Below, piece after piece: positions 13,169 through 34,445 of a DNA stretch of 61,964 bases. How positions within the stretch are numbered: the first letter of the stretch is position 1; every line of letters starts with the position of its first letter. The DNA comes from an uncultured Draconibacterium sp. (lineage in GTDB: Bacteria; Bacteroidota; Bacteroidia; Bacteroidales; FEN-979). A model generated the notes under the pieces. It did no database searches and had not been told where the DNA came from. It saw only the letters and a program-made list of their open reading frames with translations. Made by a program: the position numbers and the translations under genes. The DNA is taken from assembly GCA_964355945.1 (NCBI GenBank), contig CAYHGE010000010.1:1-61964 (forward strand). The letters run 5' to 3'.

Positions 13169-13188
13169 AATGATGAGGTTTATTTTAT

Positions 13189-13893: not shown

Positions 13894-13940
13894 ATTTTGT
13901 TTTTAACTGGAATAATTCACAAATAATTATTTTTTCTATT

Positions 13941-14036
13941 TTTCTCGGTGATTCTCAGTGTCTTCTCAGAGAACCTCTGTGTAATTTTGTTTTTCAGAGT
14001 AACCACAGAGAAACTGCACAGAGAGCCACAGAGGAA
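13941..14036. repeat. CACAGAG/CTCTGTG short-oligomer inverted repeat
   Basis: ctcggtg..ctcagtg..ctctgtg opposite cacagag x3. Confidence 0.5.
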
Positions 14037-14068
14037 TTTTCATTAATAATACAGGTTAGGTTTGATGG

Positions 14069-14716: not shown

Positions 14717-14977
14717 GTGATGTTTTTTTAGAAGTTAGAATGTTTTTTGTTGACGAAGCAAAACTAGGTCATCTCTCATGCCGGAAAGAATAATTTCAAC
14801 CAACAACAGATTAGATACCACAACCGGATATGTGAGGTCCGATGTCGTTTATCGATATCGAATTCCCGTTGATGAGACAAAATATGCGGTAGGTTTAAAA
14901 AATGCAAGGTCATGATTGCATTACGACTATCATTGCAGTATATTTGATATGTTGTTAAAAGCCGGAAATGGTATATT

Positions 14978-16716: not shown

Positions 16717-16777
16717 TACGAGATCCCTGGTTTTTATGGTTGTCACTCAGTGAAATCCCTTAACAAGTCACTAAATA

Positions 16778-18438: not shown

Positions 18439-21381
18439 CTATCCGTCATGGTGAACGGCTCGGTCGGTTTTCACAAGTAACTTAAACAGGGAGTGCTCGG
18501 CATTGAGCCTTTCAGCATTGCCATAAACACATATCACATTCTGGGTCAGCACATCTGCAACGAGTGATGCAAACCTCCGGATGTGCTCAGAAGTTGTTGA
18601 CAACACCGCATCACGGTCACCCTGAACCTCCTCAGCGGTTCTCTGAGATAAAAACATGCTTACGGCCTGGTCGCCTTTTTGAGAAGGTGTCAGGGGAGAG
18701 TCCATCTCTGAAATCGTTCCGATGATGTACCTGGTGATGCTTTTTTCATCGGCTGAAAATGCAGCAAGATATTCGGCTGTGTTGTCGAAATTTTCGATGG
18801 TGCCTCCCAGGTTCGGATCGCGATAGGAGTTGAAGGTGAAGTTTCCTCCGGGCGCAATGCTGCTGAAGCCTCCATATGCCCCGCCGATAACCCGGATACG
18901 GGTTTGAAGCCAGTCGGTCGATAAGATTTGGTTGAGAACGCGCATCCGTGCATCCCACTTGTAACCAAGTCTCTTATAATTAAAGCCTTTCACCACATAT
19001 TGTACGTTGGATGCCGCCATGAGCCCTTCATTCTGTTTTTCCAGGTTGAAACTCCAGGGGCTTTCAACCTGTGCTCCCTGGGGTAGTTGGCGGGCAAGAA
19101 AATCCAACCCTTTTGTAAAAACGGCCTGGTCTTTCTTTGCACTGGTAATGGAAACCATCAGGTTGTTCCAGGTAAACAACAGGGAGGCAACTTTCTCCAG
19201 GTTCGATATGATGACGGGTGAATTTGTGTCAAAGTTATGTAAAAGATCGGTAATGAACCAATAATAGGAGAGCCCGCCGGTAAGTTCATTGAACATTCCC
19301 TGGTTGCTGATATAAGAGGAAAATCGACGGCTTGCGATGTGATAACCATTGCCCTTCACCTGTGAATCAACCTGCGATTGATGCCGCGACAGGACGGTTT
19401 TAAGACGTTCGGAATCGTTGTAAACAGTATTGTTCAGGATCTCCGCGGCCAGTTCAAAAAGTTTTCCTGCCTTATAATTCATCACCTTTGAGGTTACAAC
19501 AAACCTGGGCAGGAGGTTGTTGTCGTCGGATTTGACCAGATGGGTGCGAAGGGAGGTGAAAAAGCCTCCTGTATGGATGTTGAGTGTCTTATTGAGGTCG
19601 CCAAAGGAGTAATTTGTTGTATTCATCGAACCGATAATATGCGTCAGCAGGGAGGCATATTGAATCAATTCCTGAGGTATCAGCTGCAAGTCGAAAAAGA
19701 GGTGGACATAAACGACATCGTTGGTGAATTGTTCATGCGTCAGCACAGGGATTCCCGTAATATTCTGAGAAGTTACCTCATAAAATGCCGCCTTTGGGTC
19801 AATATCGGATATTTCGAGCATTGGGATGGATGAAAGGGCCTCCGGTGTGTCTTCCCGCTGCTGGTATGTGATGAGCTCTTCAGTTTCAAGCACCAGCGTA
19901 TTCAGTGCCAGATCATTCAGGGTGGATTTGTAGGCAGCCAGTTCAGCTTCTGTTGATGCGTTTTGCTTTTTCTCAAGTCCGGCAGATGGCTCCAGGGTGA
20001 GCAACAGGGTATGCGGATTGTTCAGAAAGTATTTGAAGATGATTTTTTCAAGATAGTCGGTTGTAAGTGCTTTTTTTACCTCAGTCAGCGGGGCTTCATA
20101 TTCAAGACCCGTGAGCGGATCGTTGGCAAAGAACCAGCCCGGGAGCGTCATGTTCATATAGGTCAATCCCTTGTGTGCATCGTCGCCTTCCCGCAGGCGG
20201 AATTCAATCCGGTTGATCACCCCTTCGATCTCTTCTTTATTAAGACCATCGGTGGCTGCTTTGTGCAGGGTGGCTGTCACAATCTCCAGGAATTTTCCTT
20301 TATCTCCCGGATTGGCATTGAGGGCAGCGATTTGTACGGCGTGTTGTTTGAAATTGGATGCGGAAGCCGATACATCCTGGCCAATACCGGCTTCAAGCAG
20401 TGCTTTGCGAATGGGAGCTGACTCCTGGTTCACCAGCACTTCACACAGGATATCAAGCGCCAGGCTGAGGGCAAGGTCGGTATTGTGCCCGGCAATAAAA
20501 TTATAGGTGAGAAATGTTTGGTTTGCAGTTTCAGATTCCTCCATCACAGGGTAAAAGGAGGTGACCTCCTTCATGCCTTGAAATGGTTGCTGATCCTCAA
20601 TGGTGATAAGGTTTCCGGTCCTGGAATACTTTGAAAGATACTGTGCGTTAATGAACTCCAGCTCCCGTTCAATATCTGCATTGCCATAAAGGAAGAGATA
20701 GCTGTTTTCGGGATGATAGTATTTCCGGTGAAACTCCATGAAGATTTCAGGGGTAAGGGTTGGGATCGCAGCCGGTGTACCTCCTGATTCAAACCCATAA
20801 GCATTGTCTGGAAAGAGGTGTTTAAAAACCTGGTACCAAAGTTCACGCTGGGGATTCGAAAATGAACCCTTCATTTCGTTATAAACCACACCGGTATAGT
20901 TCAGCGGTTCATCCCTGCCGGTTAGTTCATAGTGCCATCCCTCTTGTTTGAGTATCCGTGGATCATCAAAAAGCAACGGATTAAAAACGGCATCCAGATA
21001 AACATGCATGAGGTTGAAATAGTCTTTCTCATTCATACTGGCCACCGGATACATGGTGTAATCCTTGGAAGTATAAGCATTTAAAAACGTACTCAGCGAC
21101 CCTTTCAGCAACACATCGAACGGGCTTTTTACAGGAAAACCCTTTGAACCATTGAGAACGGAATGTTCCATAATATGGGGTGCCCCGTTGTCCGATTCAG
21201 GAAAAGTTTTAAATCCGATGCTGAAAGTTTTGTTTGCATCTTCTGACATGATCTTGAGCAAGCGGGCACCGCTTTGAATATGCTCGAAATGGAGACAGTC
21301 TGCATTGATTTCGCGCACAAAACGCTGTTCAACGAGCCTGAAACCGTGATAAATATTGTCTGATATATAGGTTGTGGACAT
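18439..21381 (-). CDS. Insulinase family M16C metallopeptidase (presequence-protease-like)
   Basis: HIMEHSVL inverted zinc motif, FLNAYT, GVVYNEMKG, IRVIGGAYG, SYRDP. Confidence 0.93.
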   Translation of the reverse strand: MSTTYISDNIYHGFRLVEQRFVREINADCLHFEHIQSGARLLKIMSEDANKTFSIGFKTFPESDNGAPHIMEHSVLNGSKGFPVKSPFDVLLKGSLSTFLNAYTSKDYTMYPVASMNEKDYFNLMHVYLDAVFNPLLFDDPRILKQEGWHYELTGRDEPLNYTGVVYNEMKGSFSNPQRELWYQVFKHLFPDNAYGFESGGTPAAIPTLTPEIFMEFHRKYYHPENSYLFLYGNADIERELEFINAQYLSKYSRTGNLITIEDQQPFQGMKEVTSFYPVMEESETANQTFLTYNFIAGHNTDLALSLALDILCEVLVNQESAPIRKALLEAGIGQDVSASASNFKQHAVQIAALNANPGDKGKFLEIVTATLHKAATDGLNKEEIEGVINRIEFRLREGDDAHKGLTYMNMTLPGWFFANDPLTGLEYEAPLTEVKKALTTDYLEKIIFKYFLNNPHTLLLTLEPSAGLEKKQNASTEAELAAYKSTLNDLALNTLVLETEELITYQQREDTPEALSSIPMLEISDIDPKAAFYEVTSQNITGIPVLTHEQFTNDVVYVHLFFDLQLIPQELIQYASLLTHIIGSMNTTNYSFGDLNKTLNIHTGGFFTSLRTHLVKSDDNNLLPRFVVTSKVMNYKAGKLFELAAEILNNTVYNDSERLKTVLSRHQSQVDSQVKGNGYHIASRRFSSYISNQGMFNELTGGLSYYWFITDLLHNFDTNSPVIISNLEKVASLLFTWNNLMVSITSAKKDQAVFTKGLDFLARQLPQGAQVESPWSFNLEKQNEGLMAASNVQYVVKGFNYKRLGYKWDARMRVLNQILSTDWLQTRIRVIGGAYGGFSSIAPGGNFTFNSYRDPNLGGTIENFDNTAEYLAAFSADEKSITRYIIGTISEMDSPLTPSQKGDQAVSMFLSQRTAEEVQGDRDAVLSTTSEHIRRFASLVADVLTQNVICVYGNAERLNAEHSLFKLLVKTDRAVHHDG

Positions 21382-21513: not shown

Positions 21514-22359
21514 ATGAAAGCACTTCTCTCCTTGTTATTGCTGTTACCGTTTGTTGCAATCTCGCAGCCCGTTATGCCCCTTATTCCGGAAAATTTCCCG
21601 GATGCCATGGTCGGAGTATCTGCCACGTATGACATCGCCGCATTGCCTCAATATAATGATGAAGCGGCAGTTTTTATAGAATTTGGTTTCATGTCCCTCA
21701 TGGTTCAGGAAATTGCCTGGGCTACGGCAAAAATAAAAGTGGAAGTATATGAAATGGGGTCCCCTGATGCGGCATTCGGTATTTATTCGGTTTCGGCAAT
21801 GAAATGTTTGCAGCGGGATACGCTCACCTCGTATGATTGCCTCGGACCGTATCAGTACCAGGCAGCTTACGGGAATTTGTACATTTCCATCACCAGTGAA
21901 ACAGGTTCGGCTGCTGTCCGTGCCCTTTTTCTCCCCGTTGCCAATGCAATCATGCAGAAAAATTCCCGTCCTTTTTTCAAACTGCCGGATCCATTTAACC
22001 AGCCGCTGCTAAAAAATGCCAGGAAAACCCTTGTATTTATTCATGGTCCGGTAGGGCTTCAGAACTGCCTTTTTCCATGGCAGGATCTGTTTCTGACCGT
22101 GCGTTTCGGCATGTATGCCATCTCCCTGATGAATCCGCGGTCAGAGATGTATTTTGCGCGCATCTGGTTTGAAACACCTTCAGACCAGTTAAGGTTTCTT
22201 ACGTTGGCAGGGCTTACACAATCAGGAGTTCCGGTGCCCAATACCAATACCAATGATGGCCTTTACCGCGAATACCAGCAGGTGGATGATCAGACAATCT
22301 ATTTCCTGCAGAGCCAGGAACCCTGGCCGATAAGCGCAATTTTAAATCCGAGGAATTAA
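21514..22359 (+). CDS. Hypothetical exported protein (DUF6599-like)
   Basis: Signal peptide from MKALLS; VEVYEM.SPDAAFGIYS motif. Confidence 0.65.
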   Translation: MKALLSLLLLLPFVAISQPVMPLIPENFPDAMVGVSATYDIAALPQYNDEAAVFIEFGFMSLMVQEIAWATAKIKVEVYEMGSPDAAFGIYSVSAMKCLQRDTLTSYDCLGPYQYQAAYGNLYISITSETGSAAVRALFLPVANAIMQKNSRPFFKLPDPFNQPLLKNARKTLVFIHGPVGLQNCLFPWQDLFLTVRFGMYAISLMNPRSEMYFARIWFETPSDQLRFLTLAGLTQSGVPVPNTNTNDGLYREYQQVDDQTIYFLQSQEPWPISAILNPRN

Positions 22360-22415
22360 TTTCCGGAAACCGCGTCACCTTTTACCTGTTTTCCTGATTA
22401 AGCCATAAAATTCTC

Positions 22416-22910
22416 ATGGCATTATATCGGAAAAGGTACCGGATTGAATCAGCACGTTGGTCCGGTTGGGATTATTCTTCTGAAGGAACCTATTTTATTA
22501 CCATTTGCACGAAACCCCGGCTTGATGTTTTTGGACAGATCGTCAATAAAGCGATGGTATTGTCAAATCAGGGAATTGCCTTGGAGGAATGTTGGTGTTC
22601 AATTCCATTGCACTACAAAAACGCGGGATTAGGCGTTTTTGCCATCATGCCGGATCATTTTCATGGGATTATAATAATCGGCGGGACAACACAACCAATG
22701 GCCGGAAACCGACAAAACCGGCCATCATTGGGAAATATTATCGGATCATTCAAATCGGCGGCATCCAATAAAATTCATTCATCCGGATTTCCGGATTTTG
22801 GTTGGCAGGAACGATACAATGACAGGGTGATACGGGATGAACCGGAATTGAAACGAATTGAAAAATATATTCGGGATAATCCGAAAAATTGGAAACCACG
22901 GATATCGTAG
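22416..22910 (+). mobile_element. REP-associated tyrosine transposase (RAYT, Y1 HUH family)
   Basis: SARWSGWDYSSEGTYFITICT, MPDHFHG (HUH), WQERYNDRVIR, YIRDNPKNW; stop codon lies in a REP palindrome. Confidence 0.88.
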
Positions 22911-22934
22911 AGACGGGGCATGCCCCGTCTCTAC
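22907..22934. repeat. GTAG-type REP palindrome
   Basis: Perfect 28-bp palindrome GTAGAGACGGGGCATGCCCCGTCTCTAC. Confidence 0.9.
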
Positions 22935-22998
22935 GACAACGGAACAACAACCAATTTGCAGGACCATAAATGGAAACCCACGTTAAACCCCGGTCATA

Positions 22999-23682
22999 TT
23001 ATTTTATCAGCGACAACCCCTCCAGGGCCGACGTATCCTTTGGTTTGTTTAGCAGCACCTTGTTGAACATCACCTGGGCTTCACGTAATTTTCCAAGTTT
23101 GAAATTTGTCCAGGCAAACAGAATCATGGTGTCATAATCAAACGGATAGAGATTGATTACTTTCTCCAGATACTTTTCAGCCTTTGCATAGTCTTTCCGT
23201 CCATAATAGATGGAGCCCATGCGGTAATTAACGGTAGTGTTCTGAGGATCGATGGCCAGGATGTCATTGTACTGGGCAACTATGTGATCCCAGTTGCCAA
23301 GAGCGGAGGCAGGACTTGCAAATCCTAACTTTGCCTCAATTGAATATGGTTTTAATTTGATGGCTTTCTGATAATAGGCAGTCGATTCGGTGAAAAGCCC
23401 TCCAAGGTAGGTCAACCATCCAAGCCGGAGATTGGTCTCGTATGAATCTTCTGCATAAACTTTTTTTACTGTGGATATGGCATCGGCAAAATTTCCTCTT
23501 CCTTCATATTCCTGGCTTTTTGCAAAGGCTTCCTGCAGTGTGGCGTAATTAGTCTGGCTGAAAACGCTTAATGAAGCGAAAAAAAGTAGCGAAACTGCGA
23601 TGATGCGATATCGCGAAGCGACAAAATATTTTGCATTTTGCATTTTGCATTCTGCATTTTGCATTTTGTTTAAAATTTCCAT
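22999..23682 (-). CDS. Exported tetratricopeptide repeat protein
   Basis: Signal peptide (..VFS-Q), multiple TPR units; start overlaps the upstream gene. Confidence 0.88.
   Translation of the reverse strand: MEILNKMQNAECKMQNAKYFVASRYRIIAVSLLFFASLSVFSQTNYATLQEAFAKSQEYEGRGNFADAISTVKKVYAEDSYETNLRLGWLTYLGGLFTESTAYYQKAIKLKPYSIEAKLGFASPASALGNWDHIVAQYNDILAIDPQNTTVNYRMGSIYYGRKDYAKAEKYLEKVINLYPFDYDTMILFAWTNFKLGKLREAQVMFNKVLLNKPKDTSALEGLSLIK
23628..23669. repeat. Heptamer tandem repeat (ATTTTGC)x6 inside the TPR gene 5' end
   Basis: attttgc attttgc attttgc attctgc attttgc attttgt; encodes KMQNAECKMQNAKY. Confidence 0.9.
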
Positions 23683-25181
23683 GTGATTCCTCCGATTAGG
23701 GTATTTGTGTTATAGGGATTGTTTTTTGTTTTCTGGACTTCCTTGATTTGTTGTGTATCAGGATCCTCCTGTTTAATATAATATATCTGCTGGCTCTCTT
23801 TGCTGAAATACTGGTAAATGAGTGAAAGCTGAACGTGCTTTCCCACCAGGAACATCAGCGTTGCGCCTCCCCGGTAATTAATAATGTCGCTGTTGTTATA
23901 AACAACAGAACCATTGGAAATATTGGCGTTGGTGTAATCGCCATAATAGAAATTCGCTTCACCCCACATCCAGGGCGTGATTTTAGCGCCTAAAACCTGG
24001 CTGAACAACAGCCGCTTGTCTCTGCCTTGCATGAATCCGGTCACAGTCGTGGTGCCATAAAGGTTGAGGTTGCCTAAGGGATAATAGGAGAGGGAGGCAC
24101 CTAGTTGCTTTTGTTTATATCCATTCAGGTTCGACCAGCTTCCCGACAATCCGACATTTAAAAGGCCAAAGTCTTTTGTGATTGCCAGTGCTGCCACATA
24201 GTTGTTGAAGGAGGTGTCTTTTTGGGAGAATGAATAGTTTAATTGAGGGTACGACCAATTATAAGTGATGTTTGTGGAATTAGAATGAAACAAGGGGGCA
24301 TCAGCGGTTTCAGTCCGGTAAGATGAATTGGTCATGGTATAAGCTACATGCATGAAGTGAAATGCGGGCATGATTCTGAACCCTGATCCGGGGGCATATG
24401 AGGCCCCGATATGAAGTTCGTGCTGACTCACATGGTACCTGAAACTTGTATCATAAACAGCCCATTGATAACCATAGTTATACCATTGTCCGGAATCTTT
24501 TGGTGTTACATTGTACAATACAGTGTCTTGCAGCCCGGTAAACTTTTGCTCCCCCCTTCCATACTGAATGTACTTCGTTTTGGTAAAGTTGAGATAATTA
24601 TACGCAAATGAGAGGCCAATCCGGTTCGAAACCCTCATCTTCAGGCTGAGATTGCTGTAAAAACTATTGCCATAAAGATCCTGCTCCCCGTAAATACTGT
24701 CTTTCCCCATCAAAGTAGAGAGATTCGCCGGGTTTGCATTGCTGCTCAATGTATAACCGCTTTCCACATGAACATCCTGTACAACTTTGTCTATGGATTC
24801 CCTCGCTTCATTGGTCATAAAAGGCTCCAACTTGAAGGCCTGATCAGCCTGGTTGGAAAAAGTATATGCGTAATACAAATAATCGGCAATGATCGGATCC
24901 TGGGAATTAAATTCTCTTGCCTTCTTCAGATGGATGGATGCCTGGTAATATTTGGATTTGTTATAATAGGAAATCCCCATTCTTGTGCGCAGATAGTAGT
25001 AATCGATGTCCAGCTGCAAGGCCTGTTTCCCCACCAGGATCACACTGTCCCATTTTTTCTCCTCATAACAGCGGTAAGTCAGACGATCGACAGTTGCGAA
25101 ATCGAGTTTGACTGCTGCCATAGAAGAACCGCTGGTTAGCGAGAAAATGATGAATGCGAAGAACAGGATGTTAAATTTCAT
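23670..25181 (-). CDS. TPR + outer-membrane beta-barrel protein
   Basis: Signal peptide, N-terminal TPR helices, Tyr/Gly/Asn-rich strands, C-terminal GGITWKF. Confidence 0.72.
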   Translation of the reverse strand: MKFNILFFAFIIFSLTSGSSMAAVKLDFATVDRLTYRCYEEKKWDSVILVGKQALQLDIDYYYLRTRMGISYYNKSKYYQASIHLKKAREFNSQDPIIADYLYYAYTFSNQADQAFKLEPFMTNEARESIDKVVQDVHVESGYTLSSNANPANLSTLMGKDSIYGEQDLYGNSFYSNLSLKMRVSNRIGLSFAYNYLNFTKTKYIQYGRGEQKFTGLQDTVLYNVTPKDSGQWYNYGYQWAVYDTSFRYHVSQHELHIGASYAPGSGFRIMPAFHFMHVAYTMTNSSYRTETADAPLFHSNSTNITYNWSYPQLNYSFSQKDTSFNNYVAALAITKDFGLLNVGLSGSWSNLNGYKQKQLGASLSYYPLGNLNLYGTTTVTGFMQGRDKRLLFSQVLGAKITPWMWGEANFYYGDYTNANISNGSVVYNNSDIINYRGGATLMFLVGKHVQLSLIYQYFSKESQQIYYIKQEDPDTQQIKEVQKTKNNPYNTNTLIGGITWKF

Positions 25182-27388
25182 CGGCCGCTTACCAGTTTTA
25201 CTTCGGTTGTATTTTCGTTTTCATGAATAGTAAAACGCTCCAGACCATGAATACCGACAAACATTTCACACTCCATTTTCTTTATCTCCATATTGCCAAC
25301 CCTGGCCGATACTTCTGACCTTAAACGAATATTGGTTTGCATTATTGCATCTTCCATGCCAAGGTAGCTCAGGAGATATTCTGAACGGGTAAACAACATG
25401 AAAGGCGCTGCAAAGTCCTGAAAAACTCCCGCAATCCTGTTGTTGAAAGTATTCACAGGATATTGGTCTTTTACAAGAAGGTTCCGGTAGTAACCCAGCA
25501 TCACCTTGTAGGCTCCCAGGAAAAACTTGAAGAGAATCGACGACCTGTCTCCCTCAAAATGGGTAAAATAATGAATGTCGCCGTCGTTCCTGAACCATGC
25601 CCGTGAATGTGTTTTTTCACAATAGATATAAGTCTGGTTTATTGCATCAACCTGCACTTCCCAGCCAACAAGATACTCTTTACCGTTTTCGGGGGTTACC
25701 ATGAGCTTGAACTCCTGTCCCGGGATGAAATGAAATGCCTTTTCAAGGGATGCATTTTTACTGATATTTGAAACCATCACATTGTTCTCAGGGGTGGCAT
25801 ACGATTTCAACTCAAATGCCCCGCTTTTATGGCGGATGTAATGACTGATTGGATAGTCCAGCGTACGTGAACCTATATAGGGTGTGCTCTGGATCTGAAA
25901 GTGGATATGAGGCACCGGTGAACGTCCTGAGTTTCCACAGGCTGCCACAACCTGCCCCTTTTTAACGGAATCGCCGGCGGTAACTTTAAAACTTCCCTTT
26001 TTCAAATGAGACAATTTTGAGTACAGCTGATCGGTATGCCTCAGAATCAGGGTGTTCCCCCAGTTGTGTTCCAGGTCAACATTGCCAATGTCATTTTCTT
26101 CAACATCATCAACGATCTCCTCCACTGTGCCATCCGCCGGTGCGATCACCGGTTTGTTATAGGCGAAATACTCTTCCCGGCTGCTGCCATCCCGGGTGTA
26201 ACTTAGGCCGTCATCGTCCATCACCTCAAAATCCCAGGCATGACGCCAGTCGCCCTGGTGGGTGAATTTACCGTTGTGGCTTTGAGTCACCTTCCATTCA
26301 CCCCAGAAAGGCAGAATAAACGGGTAATAGAGTGACTTGCCAAAACGCGACTTGTAATTGACATGTGAATACAGGTTTTTCTCCGGTGAAAATTGTTGAT
26401 AAACCACCAGTTCAGGTTTGTCAAAAAACCGTTCCCTGAACTTAAGCGCGTAGAGGAATATCAGCACCACCAGGTTGAACGGGAGGGAATAAACCGATAG
26501 CTGGAAGATTGTAAAAATAGCCTGGGTACTGGTAAGTAGTATGGAAATCAATGGTGTGAGCAAAATAACCCATAAGAATGACCATCGAGAGGGGATGATG
26601 AAAAATCCGCCAACTGCAATTGCCGTAAGGATGAAGTTGAATCCGATGAAACCATAGCTCAGCTCACGAATGTCTGCTCCAATGAAATGGTAGTAGGCAT
26701 AAGCGGAAAAAAAACCCACCAGCGACAGGATAAATGCAATGCGGGAATAGATCAGCAGCCCTATTGAAATAAGGACCCCTGCAAAAAGGTGGTATTGGAA
26801 GAAGATCGCCCCCAGGGAAGTAAAATAAAGCCGCAGTGATTCAGGAAGGCCGAGGTCAGCCAGCCAGTTGTAGGAGACCACCATCCGCTGTCCGCCAAGC
26901 ATGAACATCTCGTTGGCCATGTAGATTCCCCGTTCGCTCACATGCAGCGTTGTAAATTGGCGTGTGGCAAGACTTACCAGCCATGTGCCCAGTAAAAAGG
27001 AGAGGCTTAAAAAGGGTAAACCATACTTGCCAACCACCCCTTCCAGGAACAGCGTAAGAAAAAGGGTAAGCATGGAGGCAAACACAAGAACAATGAAAAA
27101 TTCGCCTCCGGGCTGGTAATAAACCCCTAATCCCAGGCCAACAAGCAAACTGTTGAACCCGTAATACCCTTTTTTTATGTTGATCCGGTTGAACCCGATC
27201 AGGTATGCCAGGATATTCGTAACCATTACTGCCACCACGCCACTTATCCCGGCCCAAAAGTCGAAAAACGAAACAGCAATCAGAATCAGCGAAAATATCC
27301 TGCTGTTGGAAAAAAATATCTGAGTGTAGCTGTTCAGAATACTCGACAGAAAGGAGGGGAAAGTGGATGTCAGGCTTTTATAGTTCAT
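25178..27388 (-). CDS. Urea-transporter-family membrane domain fused to M23 peptidase and a C-terminal domain
   Basis: Duplicated UT signatures (QIFF...GYYGFN...GLPF; AIFF...GFIGFN...SLPFN); M23 motifs TH.G...AWD, PVIAPADG, WGN, HLKKGS, GNSGRSPVPHIH. Confidence 0.85.
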   Translation of the reverse strand: MNYKSLTSTFPSFLSSILNSYTQIFFSNSRIFSLILIAVSFFDFWAGISGVVAVMVTNILAYLIGFNRINIKKGYYGFNSLLVGLGLGVYYQPGGEFFIVLVFASMLTLFLTLFLEGVVGKYGLPFLSLSFLLGTWLVSLATRQFTTLHVSERGIYMANEMFMLGGQRMVVSYNWLADLGLPESLRLYFTSLGAIFFQYHLFAGVLISIGLLIYSRIAFILSLVGFFSAYAYYHFIGADIRELSYGFIGFNFILTAIAVGGFFIIPSRWSFLWVILLTPLISILLTSTQAIFTIFQLSVYSLPFNLVVLIFLYALKFRERFFDKPELVVYQQFSPEKNLYSHVNYKSRFGKSLYYPFILPFWGEWKVTQSHNGKFTHQGDWRHAWDFEVMDDDGLSYTRDGSSREEYFAYNKPVIAPADGTVEEIVDDVEENDIGNVDLEHNWGNTLILRHTDQLYSKLSHLKKGSFKVTAGDSVKKGQVVAACGNSGRSPVPHIHFQIQSTPYIGSRTLDYPISHYIRHKSGAFELKSYATPENNVMVSNISKNASLEKAFHFIPGQEFKLMVTPENGKEYLVGWEVQVDAINQTYIYCEKTHSRAWFRNDGDIHYFTHFEGDRSSILFKFFLGAYKVMLGYYRNLLVKDQYPVNTFNNRIAGVFQDFAAPFMLFTRSEYLLSYLGMEDAIMQTNIRLRSEVSARVGNMEIKKMECEMFVGIHGLERFTIHENENTTEVKLVSGR

Positions 27389-28743
27389 TTATCAAACTTT
27401 GCAAGGTGTGGTGGCACCTTCTCCATTCCATTCATGTTTTCAAGTGACTCCTTGCTGCGGATGAGATGCGGTTTTTCATCGAGATCGATGAGTACCACAT
27501 TGGGCCTTAAGGTAATAAACTGCATCCACTGCGTCATATTGTATGCGCCCACGTTGTGGATCACCACATGTTCACCTTTGTTGAGCAGGGGAAGATTGGT
27601 GCTTTCACGCACAACATCAATGTTCATGCAGAGCGGGCCATACAGGCAGGTATCTTCTGTATATTGCGTGAATGACTGAGCCGGCGTGATTTTGTGATCG
27701 TACCAGAATGCAGTGAAAAGGATATTCACCCCGACATCGAGAATGGTATTGCGGCGGCCGGTACTCGAACGCTTGTTGGAAACCACGGATCCTAAAAGAT
27801 AGCCGGCTTCATCAACAAGGGCACGCCCTGTTTCCAGGATCAGCAAAGGCAACTTGTCTTTTTTGAAATTACTGTTGATCAAAGCCGTGGATATGGCTTC
27901 GGCGAAATCGTCAAAAGATGGATTGGTGTCGCTTCCTGGCAGATAGGCCCCTTTAAGTGTGTTTTTTGAAGCAAAACCGCCTCCCAGGTCGATATACTTG
28001 ATCTCATGGCTGAACTTTGCTTCTACAGCCAAAGCCAGTTCGGCAAGTTTTGCTGCTGCAATGCCATACGCAAAAGGCGAAAGCATGAACGTTCCGATAT
28101 GGGAATGAAGTCCGACGAGTTCCATTTTTCCGGATTGCATGATCTTGTTGAGTGCGTCCCAGGCCTGGCCGTTTTCATAGTTGAATCCGAAGCGGTCCCA
28201 CATAGGATATACACCTGTATCCATGTTTACCCTGATGGCTACTCTCGGACGCTTGTTCAGCTTTCCCGAAAGTTCAGTGATGGAGTAGAGCTCGTCAAGG
28301 TGATCGATATGAATCAGCGAATCGTTGTTGATCGCTTTTGTAAGGTCTTCCTCGCTCTTGTCTGGACCATTGAAGATGATTTTCCTGCCATCCACCCCAA
28401 GGCTGATTGCCTTGTCATACTCAAAGCCCGACACTACCTCAGCCCAGGATCCCTCCTGGTGAAAGATGCTGCAAACGGCATTGAGATAGTTTGTCTTATA
28501 CGACCAGGCAAATTGCACCTTTGGATAACGTGTTTCAAATGCTTTCCTGGCTTTTTTGATGGTGGTTCGAATAGTCCGCTCGGAAATGACGAACAGGGGT
28601 GAGCCATACTCCTTTATTAAACTGTTAACTGCAACCCCGTCAATATGGGTCATGGGTTGGTACTCTGTTCTTGTTCCGAATTTATTGGGCATGCCGGTTT
28701 CAAGCTTCATAATAACCGGTCGTTCATATCTTAACTTGCTCAT
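27385..28743 (-). CDS. Fold-III PLP-dependent decarboxylase (diaminopimelate decarboxylase-like, substrate uncertain)
   Basis: WSYKTN (PLP Lys), HSHIG, DLGGG, ETGR, GPLCMNID, GAY. Confidence 0.88.
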   Translation of the reverse strand: MSKLRYERPVIMKLETGMPNKFGTRTEYQPMTHIDGVAVNSLIKEYGSPLFVISERTIRTTIKKARKAFETRYPKVQFAWSYKTNYLNAVCSIFHQEGSWAEVVSGFEYDKAISLGVDGRKIIFNGPDKSEEDLTKAINNDSLIHIDHLDELYSITELSGKLNKRPRVAIRVNMDTGVYPMWDRFGFNYENGQAWDALNKIMQSGKMELVGLHSHIGTFMLSPFAYGIAAAKLAELALAVEAKFSHEIKYIDLGGGFASKNTLKGAYLPGSDTNPSFDDFAEAISTALINSNFKKDKLPLLILETGRALVDEAGYLLGSVVSNKRSSTGRRNTILDVGVNILFTAFWYDHKITPAQSFTQYTEDTCLYGPLCMNIDVVRESTNLPLLNKGEHVVIHNVGAYNMTQWMQFITLRPNVVLIDLDEKPHLIRSKESLENMNGMEKVPPHLAKFDK

Positions 28744-28787
28744 AATTATGTTCTTAATTCAAAATTCGTTAATCAATATTCAATATT

Positions 28788-29834
28788 CTACAGCTCCCCG
28801 TAAATGCTGATCTGCTCGAACTCTGACCGGTCAACGATCATGTCCCAGGAGTAACGGATGAACATCTTTCCCACATCATAAGAGGTAAATGGCAGCACTT
28901 TTTCGCCCATGGCCAGGTTGACCAAAGCCTCAGGAATGTTCTGTCCCACGCCTACAGCGAGGTAGATCCATGCAGGAAGCCTTGGGTTGATCTCGAGCAG
29001 GTATAGTTCACCATCCTTGTTTTTCATCAGCTCAAGCTCAAACCCGCCACGCCATTTGGTGTTTTTCAGAAATTTACGGGTCATGTCGAGCATCTTTTCA
29101 TCTGAGATGGTAATCCCTCCCCATGCTTTGCCCTTATCCGTAATGTATTGCTTACGCATCGGAACAGCTCCGATGGTATTCCCTTTGCCATCCCCCAGCC
29201 CGGTTACATTGAATTCAGTTCCATGGATAAACTCCTGAATAATGATCGGAAGTCCCCACTTGGCGCTGATCTTATTGAAGTAGCTCTTCACCTGTTCAAT
29301 GCTGTATGCAATGGAAGCATCGTAGAATTTCCCCTTCACAATCATCGGAAAGGAAAATTCTGAAGGAAGGCTGTGAATAGTGTTTAAGTCGTAAATCACT
29401 TTGCTTTTCGGAACACTGATGTTGTATTTTTTCCCGAAATCGTTGAGGTTTACCTTATGGCGCTCTTCAAACTGGTGCATGGTAGGCAGGAACATGTGAA
29501 TGCCCATGGCCTTGAGTTTCGACTCCAGTTTGATAAACGGGTAAAGCTCTGCATCGAAGTTTGGAATGATCACGTCAAGCTTCTCTTTGTCATGAATATA
29601 TTCTATCCGGGAAAGCAGGGTATCGATTCCGGCTGACGGATATGGAATGGAATATGTCCGGTCAACCAGGTCGTGCATATAAATGCCCGGCTCCAGGGAT
29701 TCGTAAGATAGCCCGATGATACCAACGTCGAATGAAGCAGCCTCCCTCAATGCCCTGATCACGGAAACCCCCGGTCCCGGCGAGTCAATGGCGTTCAGCC
29801 CTGTGACGGCAATATTAAGCTTTCGTTTCTTCAT
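28788..29834 (-). CDS. ATP-grasp ligase (carbamoyl-phosphate-synthase-like fold)
   Basis: FPMIVKG, IIQEFIHGTEF, ELELM, LLEINPRLPAW; start at MKKRKL, overlapping the pqqD-like stop. Confidence 0.88.
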   Translation of the reverse strand: MKKRKLNIAVTGLNAIDSPGPGVSVIRALREAASFDVGIIGLSYESLEPGIYMHDLVDRTYSIPYPSAGIDTLLSRIEYIHDKEKLDVIIPNFDAELYPFIKLESKLKAMGIHMFLPTMHQFEERHKVNLNDFGKKYNISVPKSKVIYDLNTIHSLPSEFSFPMIVKGKFYDASIAYSIEQVKSYFNKISAKWGLPIIIQEFIHGTEFNVTGLGDGKGNTIGAVPMRKQYITDKGKAWGGITISDEKMLDMTRKFLKNTKWRGGFELELMKNKDGELYLLEINPRLPAWIYLAVGVGQNIPEALVNLAMGEKVLPFTSYDVGKMFIRYSWDMIVDRSEFEQISIYGEL

Positions 29835-30075
29835 GGCTTTCCAATAGGTTATGATGTTCAAGGATAGAGATAAAGTCGTGGTAGTCTTTCTCGAAGGTGG
29901 CCAGGTCTGTTGAATATTTATCCATGATGACCGTGTTTATCTGAACCGGAGTTTTTTCATCCCGGATGAGGTTGAGAATCTCGACTCCGATAGGATTTAT
30001 CGAATAAGATTCCCCCGTCACAGGATTGAAGAGCAGTCCGGCTTCGCTGACAGCAACATTTTTTCGTAGTTTCAT
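29815..30075 (-). CDS. PqqD-family protein (RiPP recognition element-like)
   Basis: 86 aa: LLFNPVTGESYSINPIGVEIL..I...I...Y......EKD..DFI..L...NLL. Confidence 0.85.
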   Translation of the reverse strand: MKLRKNVAVSEAGLLFNPVTGESYSINPIGVEILNLIRDEKTPVQINTVIMDKYSTDLATFEKDYHDFISILEHHNLLESHEETKA

Positions 30076-30089
30076 AATTTTAATTTTAC

Positions 30090-30117
30090 GTAGAGACGGG
30101 CCATGGCCTGTCTTTAC
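30090..30117. repeat. GTAG-type REP (variant) in the 5' UTR of the pqqD-like operon
   Basis: GTAGAGACGGGCCATGGCCTGTCTTTAC. Confidence 0.8.
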
Positions 30118-30127
30118 AATGATGATG

Positions 30128-30192
30128 CAATATTACATCTAATCAGCCCCCTGGCTGTTACGAAATTTAATAAAGGTTGTATGAAATTTTAT
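30128..30192 (-). promoter_or_regulatory. Tandem 21-bp-period boxes plus -7-like element, candidate AraC-dependent promoter of the operon
   Basis: Minus strand ATAAAATTTCATACAA and AAATTTCGTAACAG, then TAATATTG at 30135-30128. Confidence 0.6.
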
Positions 30193-30210
30193 CATGTCCC
30201 TGTATGGTTA

Positions 30211-30810
30211 TTAATTACTGTTAATTAGACCGTCCAGCCCGGACCGGCCTGAAGCAGGGGTTACCCTGTACTCAGTCACAGAAATGCCGGTGATCGATTT
30301 GAATTGGGTGGACAGGTATTGTACACTGCTGTAACCCATCATATAAGCGATCTCGCTGAGGGTAAGTTCTCCGTATTCAATAAGTTCTTTAACCTTCTCA
30401 ATCTTGTGGAGGATGGTAAATTTCTCGAGTGTGGTAATTTCATGCTTTGAAAAGAGGGATGAAATATAGGGATATGACATGCCGAACCGCTCCACCAGGT
30501 AATCTGAGTTGCGTACCATGGCATTGTAAGTCGAGTTGTGAACCAGATCAACGACCGCCTGTTTGATGTGTTCTACCAGTATCTTCTCCTTGTCGCTGAT
30601 GATTTCAAACCCGTAAACTTCCAGGATCGATTCTACTTTTTTCCATGTGATTTTCTTCGGATCCACTGAAAGGATCAGTAGTCCAAGCTTAATGTCTTGA
30701 ATTTCAATGCCATCCAGTGATAGCTCCTTCCTTAGCAGATGAATGCAACAGCTACAGGTCATGTTTTTTACATGAATTGTCCTGAAGGGAAGTGCTTTTT
30801 TTTTCTTCAT
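30211..30810 (-). CDS. AraC family regulator with N-terminal HMA-like (Cys) domain
   Basis: KNMTCSCC N-terminus; LTLSEIA..MGYSSVQYLSTQFK..TG HTH. Confidence 0.92.
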   Translation of the reverse strand: MKKKKALPFRTIHVKNMTCSCCIHLLRKELSLDGIEIQDIKLGLLILSVDPKKITWKKVESILEVYGFEIISDKEKILVEHIKQAVVDLVHNSTYNAMVRNSDYLVERFGMSYPYISSLFSKHEITTLEKFTILHKIEKVKELIEYGELTLSEIAYMMGYSSVQYLSTQFKSITGISVTEYRVTPASGRSGLDGLINSN

Positions 30811-30819
30811 AGACTTGGA

Positions 30820-32079
30820 TTATACGAGGTCATACCGGTATGAATCCTGGCGGATAAAGATAAATAATAAAATGGTAAAGGCCCATAAAGAAGATCCTCC
30901 ATAACTGACAAAAGGAAGCGGAATGCCAATAACCGGCACCAGACCGAGGGTCATCCCGATGTTGATGGCAAAGTGGAAAAAGAGGATTGAAGCCAGTCCA
31001 TACCCGTAAAACCTGCTGAACCGCGATCGCTGTCGCTCAGCCATCAGGATGACCCGGATGAAAAGACTCATATATAAGATGAGCAAAACCGATGAGCCCA
31101 GAAAACCCCACTCTTCACCAACTGTACAAAAGATGAAATCGGTGCTTTGCTCCGGCACGAAATTATATTTGGTTTGGGTCCCCTGTAAAAAGCCTTTACC
31201 GAAAAACTTGCCCGAACCGATGGCGATGAGGGACTGGTTAACATTGTAACCGGCTCCCTTTAGGTCAACATCCTGCCCGAGCAACACGTGAATGCGGTTA
31301 CGCTGGTGTGGCTCCAGGATGTTATTGACAGCAAAATTAATGGAAAATATAAAAGCGACCGACCCCAGGAAGATCATGCTGATGATCATGATGGAACGAA
31401 GCTTTCTGTTGCTGAAAAAATAAAATGTACCGGCAATAACCAGTAGCAGTGCAGCAAGAATGAGTTTTGGTACCACCAGCGCCAGGATGCCAAGCACCGG
31501 CAATACGATGAAGGCAAGAGGGATGAACCCTGTTAGTCCGGCGCGGTACAGCACAATCACCAGTGCCAGAAAGACGATGGCCGAACCGGTGTCATGCTGC
31601 AGCAATACAATCACCGCAGGCAAAAGGATAATGGCGGAAGCAATGACGAGGCTCCGGAATCGTGCAAGACTTACATCCAGGGTGCCAAGATACTTAGCCA
31701 AAGCCAGAACCGTAGCCATTTTGGCAAATTCCGCAGGCTGGATACCGAAGCCGCCAATGGCAAACCAACCTTTTGAACCGGCTATTTCCCGCCCCGAAAA
31801 AATAACAACCACGAGCAAAAACAGGAAAAAGCCATAGATAAACCAGGCAAATTGTGAGAAAAATTTAGGATCGATGATCAGGATGCCCATTGCCAGCAAC
31901 ATGGCTGCAATGATAAAAATCATCTGTTTGCCATACTTCTGTGTAAGGTCAACTATGTGATTATGATTTTCGTTATACACCGCGGCATAGATGTTCAGCC
32001 AGCCAATGAAGATCAGCGCGAGATAAAGCCCCACCACCAGCCAGTCAATCCGGTAGAATATTCCCTTGTCCTCTCTCAC
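30820..32079 (-). CDS. rodA: Rod shape-determining SEDS glycosyltransferase RodA
   Basis: QPAEFAK, QHDTGS, GYNVNQSLIAIGSG, PEQSTDFIF, GIPLPFVSYGGSS. Confidence 0.96.
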   Translation of the reverse strand: MREDKGIFYRIDWLVVGLYLALIFIGWLNIYAAVYNENHNHIVDLTQKYGKQMIFIIAAMLLAMGILIIDPKFFSQFAWFIYGFFLFLLVVVIFSGREIAGSKGWFAIGGFGIQPAEFAKMATVLALAKYLGTLDVSLARFRSLVIASAIILLPAVIVLLQHDTGSAIVFLALVIVLYRAGLTGFIPLAFIVLPVLGILALVVPKLILAALLLVIAGTFYFFSNRKLRSIMIISMIFLGSVAFIFSINFAVNNILEPHQRNRIHVLLGQDVDLKGAGYNVNQSLIAIGSGKFFGKGFLQGTQTKYNFVPEQSTDFIFCTVGEEWGFLGSSVLLILYMSLFIRVILMAERQRSRFSRFYGYGLASILFFHFAINIGMTLGLVPVIGIPLPFVSYGGSSLWAFTILLFIFIRQDSYRYDLV

Positions 32080-33910
32080 TTTCAGGTTGTTTTCCGTTTA
32101 TCAGGTTTCCATTTATCATGCGGTCTTCAAGGTCTTTACGCTTGACCGCACGGTTCAGATATTTTTCAATCATCAGGCTGGCGATTGGAGCAGCCCATGC
32201 AGCGCCATACCCGGCATTTTCCACAACCACCGAAATAGCAATCTTTGTGTTTTGTACCGGGGCAAATGCAAGGAAGATAGAATGGTTGTTGCCATGTGGA
32301 TTTTGCGCTGTACCTGTCTTTCCTCCCATTGTGATGCTGTCAATTTGGGCGATTTTTCCGGTGCCATTGGTAATTACATTGGCCATCCCTTCAATTACGA
32401 CATCGAAGTACTTCTGATCGACCAGAACCATGTTTTTTGTCCTGTAACCTTTATTTATGCTGTCTTTTTGGCCGATAGCCCTGATAATATGAGGGGTGTA
32501 ATACCATCCCCGGTTTGAAATCAGGGCCGCCTGGTTGGCCAGCTGCATCGGGGTGATACCGATTTCACCCTGTCCGATGGCGAGTGAAATAATGGTCATC
32601 GAACGCCACCTGTTTTTTCCATGATATTTGTCATAGTAAGTTGGGGTGGGAATGTTCCCGTTAAGTTCGCCGGGAATGTCGATTCCAAGCTTTTTCCCGA
32701 ATCCGAAACTCATCACCTCTTTACGCCAGCTTTCGTAAGCCTGGCGTGTGCTGACGTATGATTTCTTATCGATGATCGATTTGAAAACCCTGCAAAAATA
32801 GGCATTGCACGAGGTCTGAATGGCTCCTATCAGGTCGAGAGGAGAAGGGTGGGGGTGGCAACCTACTTTTTTACCGTTGCCCAGCGGGAAACCAGCGGCA
32901 CAGCCATAGCGTGTATCGGGGAAAAGCACGCCCTCCTGCTGCCCAACCAGCGCATCAACCAGCTTGAAGGTTGAGCCCGGCGGATACATGGCCATCAGTG
33001 CACGGTTGAACAGGGGAACAAATACAGTGTCCTGCAGCAGCTTCGTGTAATTTTTTTTACGGATGTTACCTGCGAGGAGGTTGGGGTCATATGAAGGACT
33101 GGTAACCACACATAAAATCTCTCCTGTCTGCGGTTCAATGGCCACAATGCTTCCTTTCTTGTTGGTCATCAGCAGTTCGCCGTATTCCTGCAATTCCGCA
33201 TCCAGCGAGGAGTAAAGGTCAGTGCCGGCAACCGATGTTGTATCGTATTTTCCGTCGCGGAAACTTCCCTTATCCCTGTTCAGTACATCAAATACGCGGA
33301 TCTTCAACCCCTTTTTACCCCTGAGGATCTCCTCGTAAGATTTCTCAATGCCATTGATACCGATGTAATCGCCCGACCTGTAATAGGGGTTCTTCTCGAT
33401 CACATCCGGACCAGCTTCCCCGATATAGCCAAAGGCATGTGCAGCCACCGGATAGGTGTATTTTCGTAAAGTCCTCGGCTGCACATAAAATCCCGGAAAG
33501 AGGAAAAGTTTCTCTTCAAGAAATCCATAACTGTCGCGTGTGATCTGGGCCTCAAAGATAGAAGGCCTGTATGGTGAAAAAGCTCTTGCACGTGAAAGTC
33601 TGTTGATAAACTCCGCTTTATCAATGCCGATCAGCTTACATAAAGCCAGGGTGTCCGGATTTTTAACCTGCCTGGGAACAACCATCAGATCATACGCGGC
33701 TTCATTGTAAACCAGCAATTTCCCGGTACGGTCAAATACCAGTCCGCGGGCCGGGTATTGGGTTACATAACGCAACACGTTGTTGTTGGCAGAAAGAATG
33801 TATTTATCTACGAGGATCTGAACATAGAAGAGCCGAACCAGGTAAACCAGGCCGATCAGCAGGAAAAACCCGATGATGATGTATTTCCGGTCAGCGTAAA
33901 TTCTTTCCAT
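32045..33910 (-). CDS. mrdA: Penicillin-binding protein 2
   Basis: YPPGSTFK (SxxK), SCN (SxN), KTGTAQN; N-terminal anchor. Confidence 0.95.
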   Translation of the reverse strand: MERIYADRKYIIIGFFLLIGLVYLVRLFYVQILVDKYILSANNNVLRYVTQYPARGLVFDRTGKLLVYNEAAYDLMVVPRQVKNPDTLALCKLIGIDKAEFINRLSRARAFSPYRPSIFEAQITRDSYGFLEEKLFLFPGFYVQPRTLRKYTYPVAAHAFGYIGEAGPDVIEKNPYYRSGDYIGINGIEKSYEEILRGKKGLKIRVFDVLNRDKGSFRDGKYDTTSVAGTDLYSSLDAELQEYGELLMTNKKGSIVAIEPQTGEILCVVTSPSYDPNLLAGNIRKKNYTKLLQDTVFVPLFNRALMAMYPPGSTFKLVDALVGQQEGVLFPDTRYGCAAGFPLGNGKKVGCHPHPSPLDLIGAIQTSCNAYFCRVFKSIIDKKSYVSTRQAYESWRKEVMSFGFGKKLGIDIPGELNGNIPTPTYYDKYHGKNRWRSMTIISLAIGQGEIGITPMQLANQAALISNRGWYYTPHIIRAIGQKDSINKGYRTKNMVLVDQKYFDVVIEGMANVITNGTGKIAQIDSITMGGKTGTAQNPHGNNHSIFLAFAPVQNTKIAISVVVENAGYGAAWAAPIASLMIEKYLNRAVKRKDLEDRMINGNLINGKQPESERGQGNILPD

Positions 33911-33917
33911 GAAACCC

Positions 33918-34445
33918 TTAGCGCCTCCTCAGAATGATGGGTGGCGTTGAATCCACATTGCTTTTGTGCAACGCACGGTCGTAGATGAAAAATTTGAATT
34001 TGACCGTGTCGTGCAATGGGGCTGGATTCAGCATCAGGGTGTCAAGAATCGTTCCTTTGATTGCCTTGTTTTGATCGATGGGTGTCAGATTGGGGATCCT
34101 TGCGTTATAGGAGGGATCAAGATCAACCTTTACGAAGGTGCCATTTCGCATCTCATAATAGTCGATGATATAATTGTAATAATAGATGCTTCCGGTATCG
34201 AATGGAGGGTTTTTTTGATTGTCTCCGAGACCGATGTCTCCGTTTCCGTCTTTGAAGGAAATGGTTAAATATCCTCTTTTAGCGTACAATCCTGAGTCGA
34301 ACTGCATGATGAAACCCTCATAAGCAATTACAGGAATGTCCGGATAAACCTCTTTTTTTACACACGATGTTCCCATAAGCCCGCAAACGAAGAGGGCAAC
34401 ATACCACCAGTTTCGAAAACCCTTGGAATTGAGATAAAACATCAT
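33918..34445 (-). CDS. Hypothetical lipoprotein
   Basis: Lipobox GTSC; FKDGNGDIG and IYDRALHKSN motifs. Confidence 0.75.
   Translation of the reverse strand: MMFYLNSKGFRNWWYVALFVCGLMGTSCVKKEVYPDIPVIAYEGFIMQFDSGLYAKRGYLTISFKDGNGDIGLGDNQKNPPFDTGSIYYYNYIIDYYEMRNGTFVKVDLDPSYNARIPNLTPIDQNKAIKGTILDTLMLNPAPLHDTVKFKFFIYDRALHKSNVDSTPPIILRRR

Follow-up and report, generated by a model that had tools for sequence, protein, structure and literature searches.

Why should a channel of the urea transporter (UT) superfamily carry a metallopeptidase of the M23 family behind its last membrane helix? M23 enzymes are regarded as extracytoplasmic cell-wall hydrolases and UT proteins as simple urea pores. The question is raised by a protein, here called UT-M23, encoded on contig CAYHGE010000010.1 of an uncultured Draconibacterium sp. 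from the Bacteroidota phylum (assembly GCA_964355945.1), of which a stretch of 61,964 nucleotides was analysed (the window). A preliminary description, made from the sequence alone, had placed there a UT channel fused to an apparently intact M23 peptidase that might face the cytoplasm; its coordinates proved exact and correspond to a single open reading frame (ORF) on the minus strand (Table 1). The fusion occurs in hundreds of species, always beside genes encoding a ligase and a decarboxylase, which suggests that both folds were recruited to make a small molecule and to move it across both membranes. M23 has been listed among the modules found C-terminal to bacterial UT domains, with one modelled and with no function, topology, or gene context given in the accessible text of that paper (PMC12998343, Biol Direct 2026), and full-text literature searches returned no further paper on UT-M23. 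The architecture has thus already been listed, and the widespread six-gene Bacteroidota system to which the protein belongs is itself uncharacterised in the literature so covered.

Both assigned domains score far beyond chance in Pfam. UT (PF03253) matches residues 15-315 with an E-value of 4.1e-60 and 203.9 bits, where the cut-off is 25, and spans positions 2-291 of the 292 in the Pfam model; Peptidase_M23 (PF01551) matches residues 410-501 with an E-value of 4.7e-16 and 59.2 bits against a cut-off of 28.7. Residues 505-736, which have no match in Pfam or NCBIfam, form the additional C-terminal domain that had been noticed before. The UT-like repeat motifs GYYGFN (residues 74-79) and GFIGFN (residues 246-251), also named in the preliminary description, were found, as was KFRER (residues 316-320) directly behind the last membrane helix (residues 302-315 of the model). 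The AlphaFold2 model of the full-length protein, built with 122 family sequences, reached a mean predicted local distance difference test score (pLDDT) of 95.2 and a predicted template modelling score (pTM) of 0.90; in it, a helical channel ends at residue 315 and is followed by a linker helix and then by beta-rich domains. The pTM value implies that, in the model, the UT, M23, and C-terminal domains are fixed relative to one another, with the soluble part packed on the channel. In Foldseek searches, the model matched the dvUT structures 3k3f and 3me1 (E-value 1e-14; template modelling (TM) score 0.83-0.88 on the target), and its helix pattern fits the UT fold, with two inverted five-helix repeats and a tilted pore helix in each. 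The M23 enzymes ShyA, DipM, EnpA, and Csd1/2 were matched at E-values of 1e-6 to 1e-5, the M23 domain giving an E-value of 3.4e-6 and a TM score of 0.74 on the target with EnpA (6smk). Residue conservation was read from a family alignment of 120 rows, comprising UT-M23 and 119 representatives of 690-770 amino acids from a library clustered at 50% identity. The linker carries an 'SPExNLY' motif in which P335 is kept in 116 and E336 in 119 of these rows (window positions 26381-26386, minus strand); judged by its conservation, this P335-E336 motif could act as a plug, as a latch of the zinc site, or as part of the pore exit.

On which side of the inner membrane does the peptidase lie? The UT part and dvUT can be aligned over their whole length (query residues 10-320 with chain residues 14-316 of 3k3f; E-value 1.2e-19). 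Both termini of UT proteins are cytoplasmic and the loop between the two halves is extracellular, as described in the accessible text of PMC9097623, and the T5a-Pb loop lies on the periplasmic side according to the accessible part of PMC4357013. Between the last helix and the M23 core lie 37-54 residues in all 120 family members, and in 114 of them no 19-residue window exceeds 1.6 on the Kyte-Doolittle scale anywhere past residue 316. The family mean of Lys and Arg residues is about 5.9-6.9 on the predicted inner segments vs. 2.0 on the outer ones. Two stand-alone proteins consisting of the M23 and C-terminal domains (from L032 and P0261) start in the linker and have no signal peptide. Because of the homology to dvUT, the cytoplasmic UT termini, the lack of a later helix, and the positive charge of the inner segments, the M23 domain is very probably cytoplasmic, as had been suggested before, and the extracytoplasmic location usual for M23 enzymes is not what these features predict.

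Is the peptidase intact? Its five candidate catalytic residues, H377, D386, H461, H494, and H496, are each invariant in all 120 family members, as are T376, Q369, N445, S487, G488, and Q500. The zinc ligands proposed in the preliminary description were all located, THQG at residues 376-379, AWD at 384-386, and PHIH at 493-496; H383 of 'HAWD', however, is variable (H in 44, Y in 23, F in 18, and K in 14 rows) and is not a conserved ligand. The residue four positions before D386, where the canonical HxxxD motif would have its histidine, is R382 (R in 42, K in 21, S in 17, and A in 16 rows). Since H383 is variable and H377 invariant, the metal motif read from the alignment is H377-x8-D386 together with H494-x-H496, and not canonical HxxxD. 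About 20 additional residues lie between D386 and the conserved P413, and because of this insertion the Pfam match begins only at residue 410. UT-M23 thus shares with LytM, lysostaphin, EnpA, MepM, and ShyA the fold, the HxH motif, the third catalytic histidine (H461), and the aspartate ligand, and differs from them in the His-Asp spacing, in the D386-P413 insertion, and in a domain that is predicted to be cytoplasmic, is fused to a channel, and is partnered by cytoplasmic biosynthetic enzymes. A longer His-Asp spacing also occurs in LasA-type M23A enzymes. LytM-type domains such as those of EnvC and NlpD act as non-catalytic regulators and have lost their metal ligands; a dead domain of this kind would not be expected to keep all its catalytic residues invariant, and the M23 domain appears to be catalytically intact, in agreement with the earlier view.

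Is the channel still a urea pore? Pore sites were named after PMC4357013 and mapped through the dvUT alignment, the chain index being the paper number plus 3. In dvUT, UT-B, and UT-A2, the central (Sm) filter is identically Leu, Thr, Leu, Thr, as given in the accessible part of that source (PMC4357013), whereas UT-M23 has L82, S128, L254, and S301. Ser or Ala occupies the first of the two Thr sites in 102 and the second in 91 of the 120 rows. Other pore residues are strongly kept (N79 in 114, N251 in 118, F131 in 119, and F197 in 116 rows), and F78 and F250 are retained. In the comparison with dvUT that the preliminary description had proposed, Phe, Asn, and Leu are conserved, both central Thr are replaced by Ser, and the outer Glu is replaced by Ala. 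The score against the urea-transporter equivalog TIGR03441 in NCBIfam was 125.8 bits, vs. a cut-off of 274.6. The source genome contains one UT gene, and a urease alpha subunit was not found in it (the assembly being 89% complete). Because the Phe, Asn, and Leu sites are retained and the Thr and Glu sites are changed, we regard the pore, as judged from the alignment, as being under selection with a filter unlike that of characterised urea channels. Relative to the UT/SLC14 channels (dvUT, Yut, UT-B, and UT-A), UT-M23 therefore has the same fold, inverted repeats, and end-to-end alignment and, by homology, cytoplasmic termini and presumably a trimeric state; it differs in the altered filter, in the equivalog score, and in a predicted cytoplasmic extension of 416 residues set in a biosynthetic operon in a genome where no urease was found.

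The C-terminal domain, folded alone, gave a pLDDT of 95.1; its long antiparallel sheet is curved and accompanied by three short helices. Foldseek returned YmcC-like proteins and LolA/LolB/RseB/LppX at E-values of about 1e-4 and probability 1.0, with TM scores of only 0.3-0.4. VIA-align gave Z 9.3 to 4fvs, a Parabacteroides lipoprotein, and Z 8.0-8.1 to LolA, and lipovitellin/ApoB barrels and unrelated outer-membrane barrels scored Z 8-9 alongside. The modelled domain thus shows a borderline resemblance, useful as a lead, to open beta-troughs of the YmcC/LolA kind, which often hold hydrophobic ligands. A search of the ESM Atlas with this domain reached a best score of 0.80-0.81, below the useful range. 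Because few of its residues are invariant in the family alignment, a binding or packing role seems more likely than catalysis. Prediction of a complex between residues 331-736 and the PqqD-like protein encoded nearby gave a score of 0.08 against a mark of 0.32, which speaks neither for nor against binding.

Which genes accompany UT-M23? In the window, it is the fourth gene of a six-gene cassette on the minus strand, in the order PqqD-like protein, ATP-grasp ligase, decarboxylase, UT-M23, tetratricopeptide repeat (TPR)-barrel protein, and TPR protein, and the genes overlap or nearly abut at their ends. A word-index search found 4098 proteins at an E-value of at most 0.001 among 8000 scored candidates, of which the best 120 all have both Pfam domains; an exhaustive search gave 719 clusters at 50% identity with an E-value of at most 1e-30, and a pattern scan found at least 588 relatives of the fusion in species genomes, among them metagenome-assembled genomes assigned to Draconibacterium orientale and others bearing the titles 'Alphaproteobacteria' and 'Clostridia'. 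When 200 other genomes of the phylum were sampled, 14 carried the gene, once split and once without the C-terminal domain. A search begun from a metagenome-assembled genome labelled Chlorobiota led back to this sample and gave no further information on spread to another phylum. The genes for the ATP-grasp ligase, the decarboxylase, and UT-M23 were co-linear at all 14 of these loci; 12 had the TPR gene, 12 the PqqD-like gene, and six a barrel gene detectable with the query from this window. Gene order was constant at 51 well-flanked loci, which are those among the best 80 of the at least 588 relatives whose flanks measure at least 3 kb on the upstream and 2.8 kb on the downstream side; the ligase and the decarboxylase were each present at 49 of them, the PqqD-like protein at 47, the barrel at 50, and the TPR protein at all 51.

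Several unusual forms of the locus were observed. L032 (G016:C1, positions 7944-17609) has a 358-amino-acid UT gene and a 393-amino-acid gene for the M23 and C-terminal domains in overlapping frames, and about 6 kb of foreign ORFs (471 and 1363 amino acids) lie between the M23 gene and the barrel gene. L035 (G089:C21, positions 4729-9762) is a three-gene core of ATP-grasp ligase, decarboxylase, and a 521-amino-acid UT-M23 in which the C-terminal domain is absent. Its surroundings showed no gene for a PqqD-like, barrel, or TPR protein, the accessory genes being absent along with the domain. Two small ORFs at this locus (176 and 127 amino acids), without any family or similarity match, look spurious and were set aside. 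In the representative P0170 (1305 amino acids, nearly double the length of UT-M23), both UT and M23 lie within the first 512 residues, and for about 640 of the remaining ones Pfam gives no match; this may reflect fusion to the following gene or an artefact of gene calling.

What chemistry do the constant partners suggest? The best solved relative of the decarboxylase is the N-citrylornithine decarboxylase FslC (7kh2; E-value 9.9e-59, 202 bits), ahead of the best diaminopimelate decarboxylase (136 bits) and of BtrK (76 bits, E-value about 1e-20). Its score of 233.3 bits lies below the NCBIfam cut-off of 500 for FslC, and by sequence it is a relative and not an ortholog of that enzyme. The substrate of FslC is an amide conjugate of ornithine. 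The ATP-grasp ligase had no match to solved structures as a single sequence; as a profile, it matched carbamoyl-phosphate synthetase (1a9x; E-value 6.6e-18) and otherwise only generic domains of carbamoyl-phosphate synthetases and biotin carboxylases, which are uninformative on its substrate. The 503-amino-acid protein has a signal-like N-terminus, a TPR-like stretch, and a beta-rich C-terminal part with a terminal aromatic residue. It has no Pfam match and no match to solved structures at E-values up to 1; its feature score of 0.96-0.97 to TPR barrels of the YaiO family in the Atlas is a lead only. By these features, it is probably an outer-membrane TPR-barrel. The last protein of the cassette, with weak NCBIfam matches to BcsC and PgaA, is probably periplasmic, as judged by its hydrophobic N-terminal segment.

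Taken together, the constant partners are enzymes of amide formation and alpha-decarboxylation, an apparently intact amidase is predicted on the same side of the membrane, and two envelope proteins follow; for these reasons we tentatively propose, as the simplest reading and at slightly less than an even chance, that UT-M23 is the inner-membrane part of a synthesis-and-export line and that its M23 domain releases or unmasks a compound by hydrolysis where the pore opens to the cytoplasm. In such a line, the cytoplasmic ATP-grasp ligase would join a carboxylate to the distal amine of an amino acid, and the FslC-like decarboxylase would then remove the alpha-carboxylate. The M23 domain would hydrolyse one amide bond of the intermediate, releasing or unmasking a small, uncharged or slender amide or amine, which could diffuse out through the UT pore and cross the outer membrane via the TPR-barrel and TPR proteins. 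The preliminary description had likewise suggested that a substrate is processed before export; the conserved neighbours, biosynthetic enzymes of the cytoplasm on the one hand and two envelope proteins on the other, would fit this. What the substrate is, what kind of product is made, whether hydrolysis is coupled to permeation, and whether the flux is directed outward are things that we can only infer.

A more elaborate version, which we hold to be rather unlikely, is that the tethered cytoplasmic zinc amidase makes the passive UT pore effectively one-way by freeing the permeant at the pore mouth. This permeant would be a small amide or amine that the ATP-grasp ligase and the FslC-like decarboxylase assemble on a scaffold of peptide-like or protein nature, with the PqqD-like protein as guide. 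In the boldest form, a slender linear oligo-amide would be threaded through the pore and handed to the PgaA/BcsC-like TPR-barrel.

Several observations weigh against synthesis and export as proposed here. UT pores are passive and bidirectional, so import is possible. Because L035 lacks the barrel and TPR genes, the core can, by gene content, do without the envelope proteins. Between the regulator gene upstream and the PqqD-like gene, no gene for a precursor peptide was found. The fold match of the C-terminal domain is borderline also in VIA-align, where its Z of about 9 compares with a typical best Z of 7-8 for unmatched models. The split form in L032 is weak evidence on topology, as its overlapping frames resemble a frameshift, about 6 kb of unrelated ORFs part its M23 gene from the barrel gene, and the locus may be decaying. 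Finally, the nearest stand-alone relative of the M23 module that was examined, the 393-amino-acid protein L017, has a signal peptide and degenerate catalytic residues. This protein (G189:C9, positions 1477-2658, minus strand) shares 37% identity over residues 358-535, no longer has the TH and D ligands or the third histidine, and looks like a degenerate, secreted factor of the LytM type.

The direction of flux is the point at which an import system would part from the proposed one. The barrel and the UT pore would then admit an external amide or ureido compound, the tethered M23 domain would hydrolyse it as it emerges and so pull the flux inward, in the way that urease acts behind UreI, and the ligase and decarboxylase would process the fragments. 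A channel that conducts both ways, a peptidase predicted on the cytoplasmic side, and a dedicated outer-membrane protein would suit uptake as well as export; we nevertheless consider uptake improbable, as synthesis is indicated by a ligase that spends ATP and by a decarboxylase whose nearest relative serves siderophore biosynthesis, and the cassette shows no conserved genes for catabolism or for binding proteins at the 51 loci. Bacteroidota moreover usually take up nutrients by TonB-dependent SusC-like systems, of which there is none in the set. Somewhat more improbable still is that the M23 and C-terminal domains serve as a gate or docking platform, plugging or regulating the pore or tethering the enzymes, with hydrolysis not directed at the pathway product. 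Rigid packing of the soluble domains on the channel, as the pTM value suggests, the nearly invariant P335-E336 motif, and the precedent of EnvC and NlpD would all agree with such a role, but regulatory LytM domains have lost the metal ligands that are fully kept here, and L035 retains M23 while losing only the C-terminal domain.

Two further explanations would leave one of the fused folds in its familiar function. If UT-M23 were an ordinary peptidoglycan hydrolase in the periplasm, anchored by a UT-like domain whose topology is opposite to that of known UT proteins and tied to RodA and PBP2, it would act where characterised M23 enzymes act, outside the cytoplasm on peptidoglycan, and the partial NCBIfam matches to MepM, ShyA/ShyC, and Pgp3, as well as the RodA and PBP2 genes just upstream in the window, would find a reason. 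Those matches, however, score 19-42 bits against cut-offs of at least 300, and RodA/PBP2 are adjacent at only 10 of the 51 well-flanked loci, in closer relatives, and at none of the 14 phylum-wide loci; the constant partners are the cytoplasmic ligase and decarboxylase. With homology, charge bias, and the lack of an extra helix all placing M23 inside, this explanation is extremely improbable. Hardly better placed, and in our view very improbable, is a plain urea channel with an accessory domain, as databases annotate it. The name 'urea transporter' given by the source, the strong Pfam match, and the retained Phe, Asn, and Leu pore residues are what one would expect of it; the equivalog score far below its cut-off, the substitution of the central Thr, the fact that no urease alpha subunit was found in the genome (89% complete), and constant neighbours unrelated to urea are not.

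How does the proposed synthesis-and-export line compare with known systems? The peptidase-containing ATP-binding cassette (ABC) transporters of bacteriocin export (PCATs), to which UT-M23 had been likened, also place a cytoplasm-facing peptidase in an exporter so that cargo is cut before translocation. The likeness is one of logic and not of family membership: Pfam finds only UT and M23 in UT-M23, with no C39 or ABC domain, ATP-driven transport and a double-glycine precursor are lacking, and a metallopeptidase is joined to a passive pore as scaffold. UreI (PMC3863980) with urease in Helicobacter pylori likewise combines a channel for small amides with a cytoplasmic amidohydrolase that uses the flux; there, the channel family and the enzyme are unrelated to those of UT-M23, which is one polypeptide and whose neighbours suggest synthesis. 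An ATP-dependent amide ligase is paired with a related decarboxylase in FslA/FslC (rhizoferrin) and BtrJ/BtrK (the butirosin side chain). The ligase of the cassette is an ATP-grasp enzyme of the carbamoyl-phosphate-synthetase type and not a synthetase of the nonribosomal-peptide-synthetase-independent siderophore type, no carrier of the acyl carrier protein type is present, and neither pathway has a UT-M23 component. As a lead only, the 503-amino-acid protein resembles the PgaA/BcsC exporters and YaiO barrels in its signal peptide and its TPR-like and barrel-like parts; the cassette differs in having no polysaccharide synthase, and the protein has no sequence match in Pfam or the PDB.

If the proposed line is real, an M23 amidase would for the first time have a role in the cytoplasm, the UT fold would gain a substrate other than urea, and chemistry would be coupled to passive transport in a new way. 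The finding would also give access to a metabolite, so far unexplored, of environmental and anaerobic Bacteroidota and would correct the database names 'urea transporter' and 'peptidase M23' on thousands of sequences. Should the pore in addition be one-way, the cassette would define an undescribed class of secreted Bacteroidota metabolite and a new trans-envelope export device.

Table 1. Features of UT-M23 and of its gene cassette in the window. Pore sites are given as residues of UT-M23 with their dvUT counterparts; letter counts refer to the 120-row family alignment.
Feature	Position	Strand	Residues or size	Basis or remark
UT-M23, whole ORF (UT channel, linker helix, M23 domain, C-terminal beta domain)	25178..27388	minus	736 aa + stop	
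UT-superfamily channel domain, two inverted repeats	26429..27388	minus	aa 1-320	Pfam, match to dvUT 3k3f, Foldseek
Linker with conserved helix (aa 335-349), no membrane helix	26312..26428	minus	aa 321-359	Alignment, AlphaFold2 model
M23 metallopeptidase domain	25877..26311	minus	aa 360-504	Pfam, residue conservation, Foldseek match to EnpA 6smk
C-terminal domain, curved antiparallel beta sheet or open barrel	25181..25876	minus	aa 505-736 (232 aa)	Model, fold searches
UT pore positions			Q23, F78, L82, S128, A194, F197, F250, L254, S301	
Central pore site, dvUT L84			L82	
Central pore site, dvUT T130			S128	S 97, T 17, A 5, N 1
Central pore site, dvUT L247			L254	
Central pore site, dvUT T294			S301	S 57, A 34, T 14, I 10
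Outer pore site, dvUT E187			A194	Five commonest: A 73, S 21, G 7, T 5, V 3; neither E nor Q among them
M23 catalytic codon	26258-26260	minus	H377	
M23 catalytic codon	26231-26233	minus	D386	
M23 catalytic codon	26006-26008	minus	H461	
M23 catalytic codon	25907-25909	minus	H494	
M23 catalytic codon	25901-25903	minus	H496	
PqqD-like small protein, first cassette gene	29815..30075	minus	86 aa	Pfam PqqD, E-value 1.4e-8
ATP-grasp ligase	28788..29861	minus		Pfam ATPgrasp_Ter, ATP-grasp_3
Pyridoxal-phosphate-dependent decarboxylase	27385..28743	minus		PDB 7kh2; stop overlaps UT-M23 start (ATGA)
Envelope protein (probable TPR-barrel)	23670..25181	minus	503 aa	Start overlaps UT-M23 stop
TPR protein with hydrophobic N-terminal segment, last cassette gene	22999..23682	minus	227 aa	Pfam TPR families
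AraC-family regulator, directly upstream of the cassette	30211..30810	minus		Pfam HTH_18, E-value 7e-13

Within the cassette, the ATG at 29834 is likely the true start of the ATP-grasp gene and overlaps with the end of the gene for the PqqD-like protein. The idea that the PqqD-like protein is a carrier of the LysW type was set aside, as its acidic tails vary in length and in the last residue (A in 13, E in 11, D in 9, N in 7, and others; n = 53) and have no conserved acceptor. A promoter and terminator scan over positions 22300-30400 showed no excess over shuffled sequences (15 vs. 15.0 and 11 vs. 8.4, respectively), and no Rfam family was found in positions 22000-31000.

An AraC regulator gene is adjacent at 21 of the 51 well-flanked loci. 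In the window, the N-terminus of this regulator has a CxxC pair and a weak likeness to heavy-metal-associated domains (Pfam HMA, E-value 0.076; NCBIfam CopZ, E-value 0.0011); the idea of a metal-sensing regulator was dropped, as the pair is kept in 10 of 24 AraC homologs beside other cassettes. Upstream of the regulator, positions 30820-34445 (minus strand) encode RodA (FtsW/RodA/SpoVE), PBP2 with its transpeptidase and dimerisation domains, and a 175-amino-acid ORF of no family. Just downstream of the cassette lies an ORF resembling transposases of the repetitive extragenic palindromic (REP)-associated tyrosine type (22416-22910, plus strand; NF047646, E-value 1.1e-11, 44.8 bits, below the cut-off of 80; weak Pfam Y1_Tnp match). 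Beyond it, positions 18439-21381 (minus strand) encode a 980-amino-acid peptidase of the M16C/PreP type (Pfam M16C_assoc, E-value 6.9e-67), which is adjacent at six of the 51 loci.

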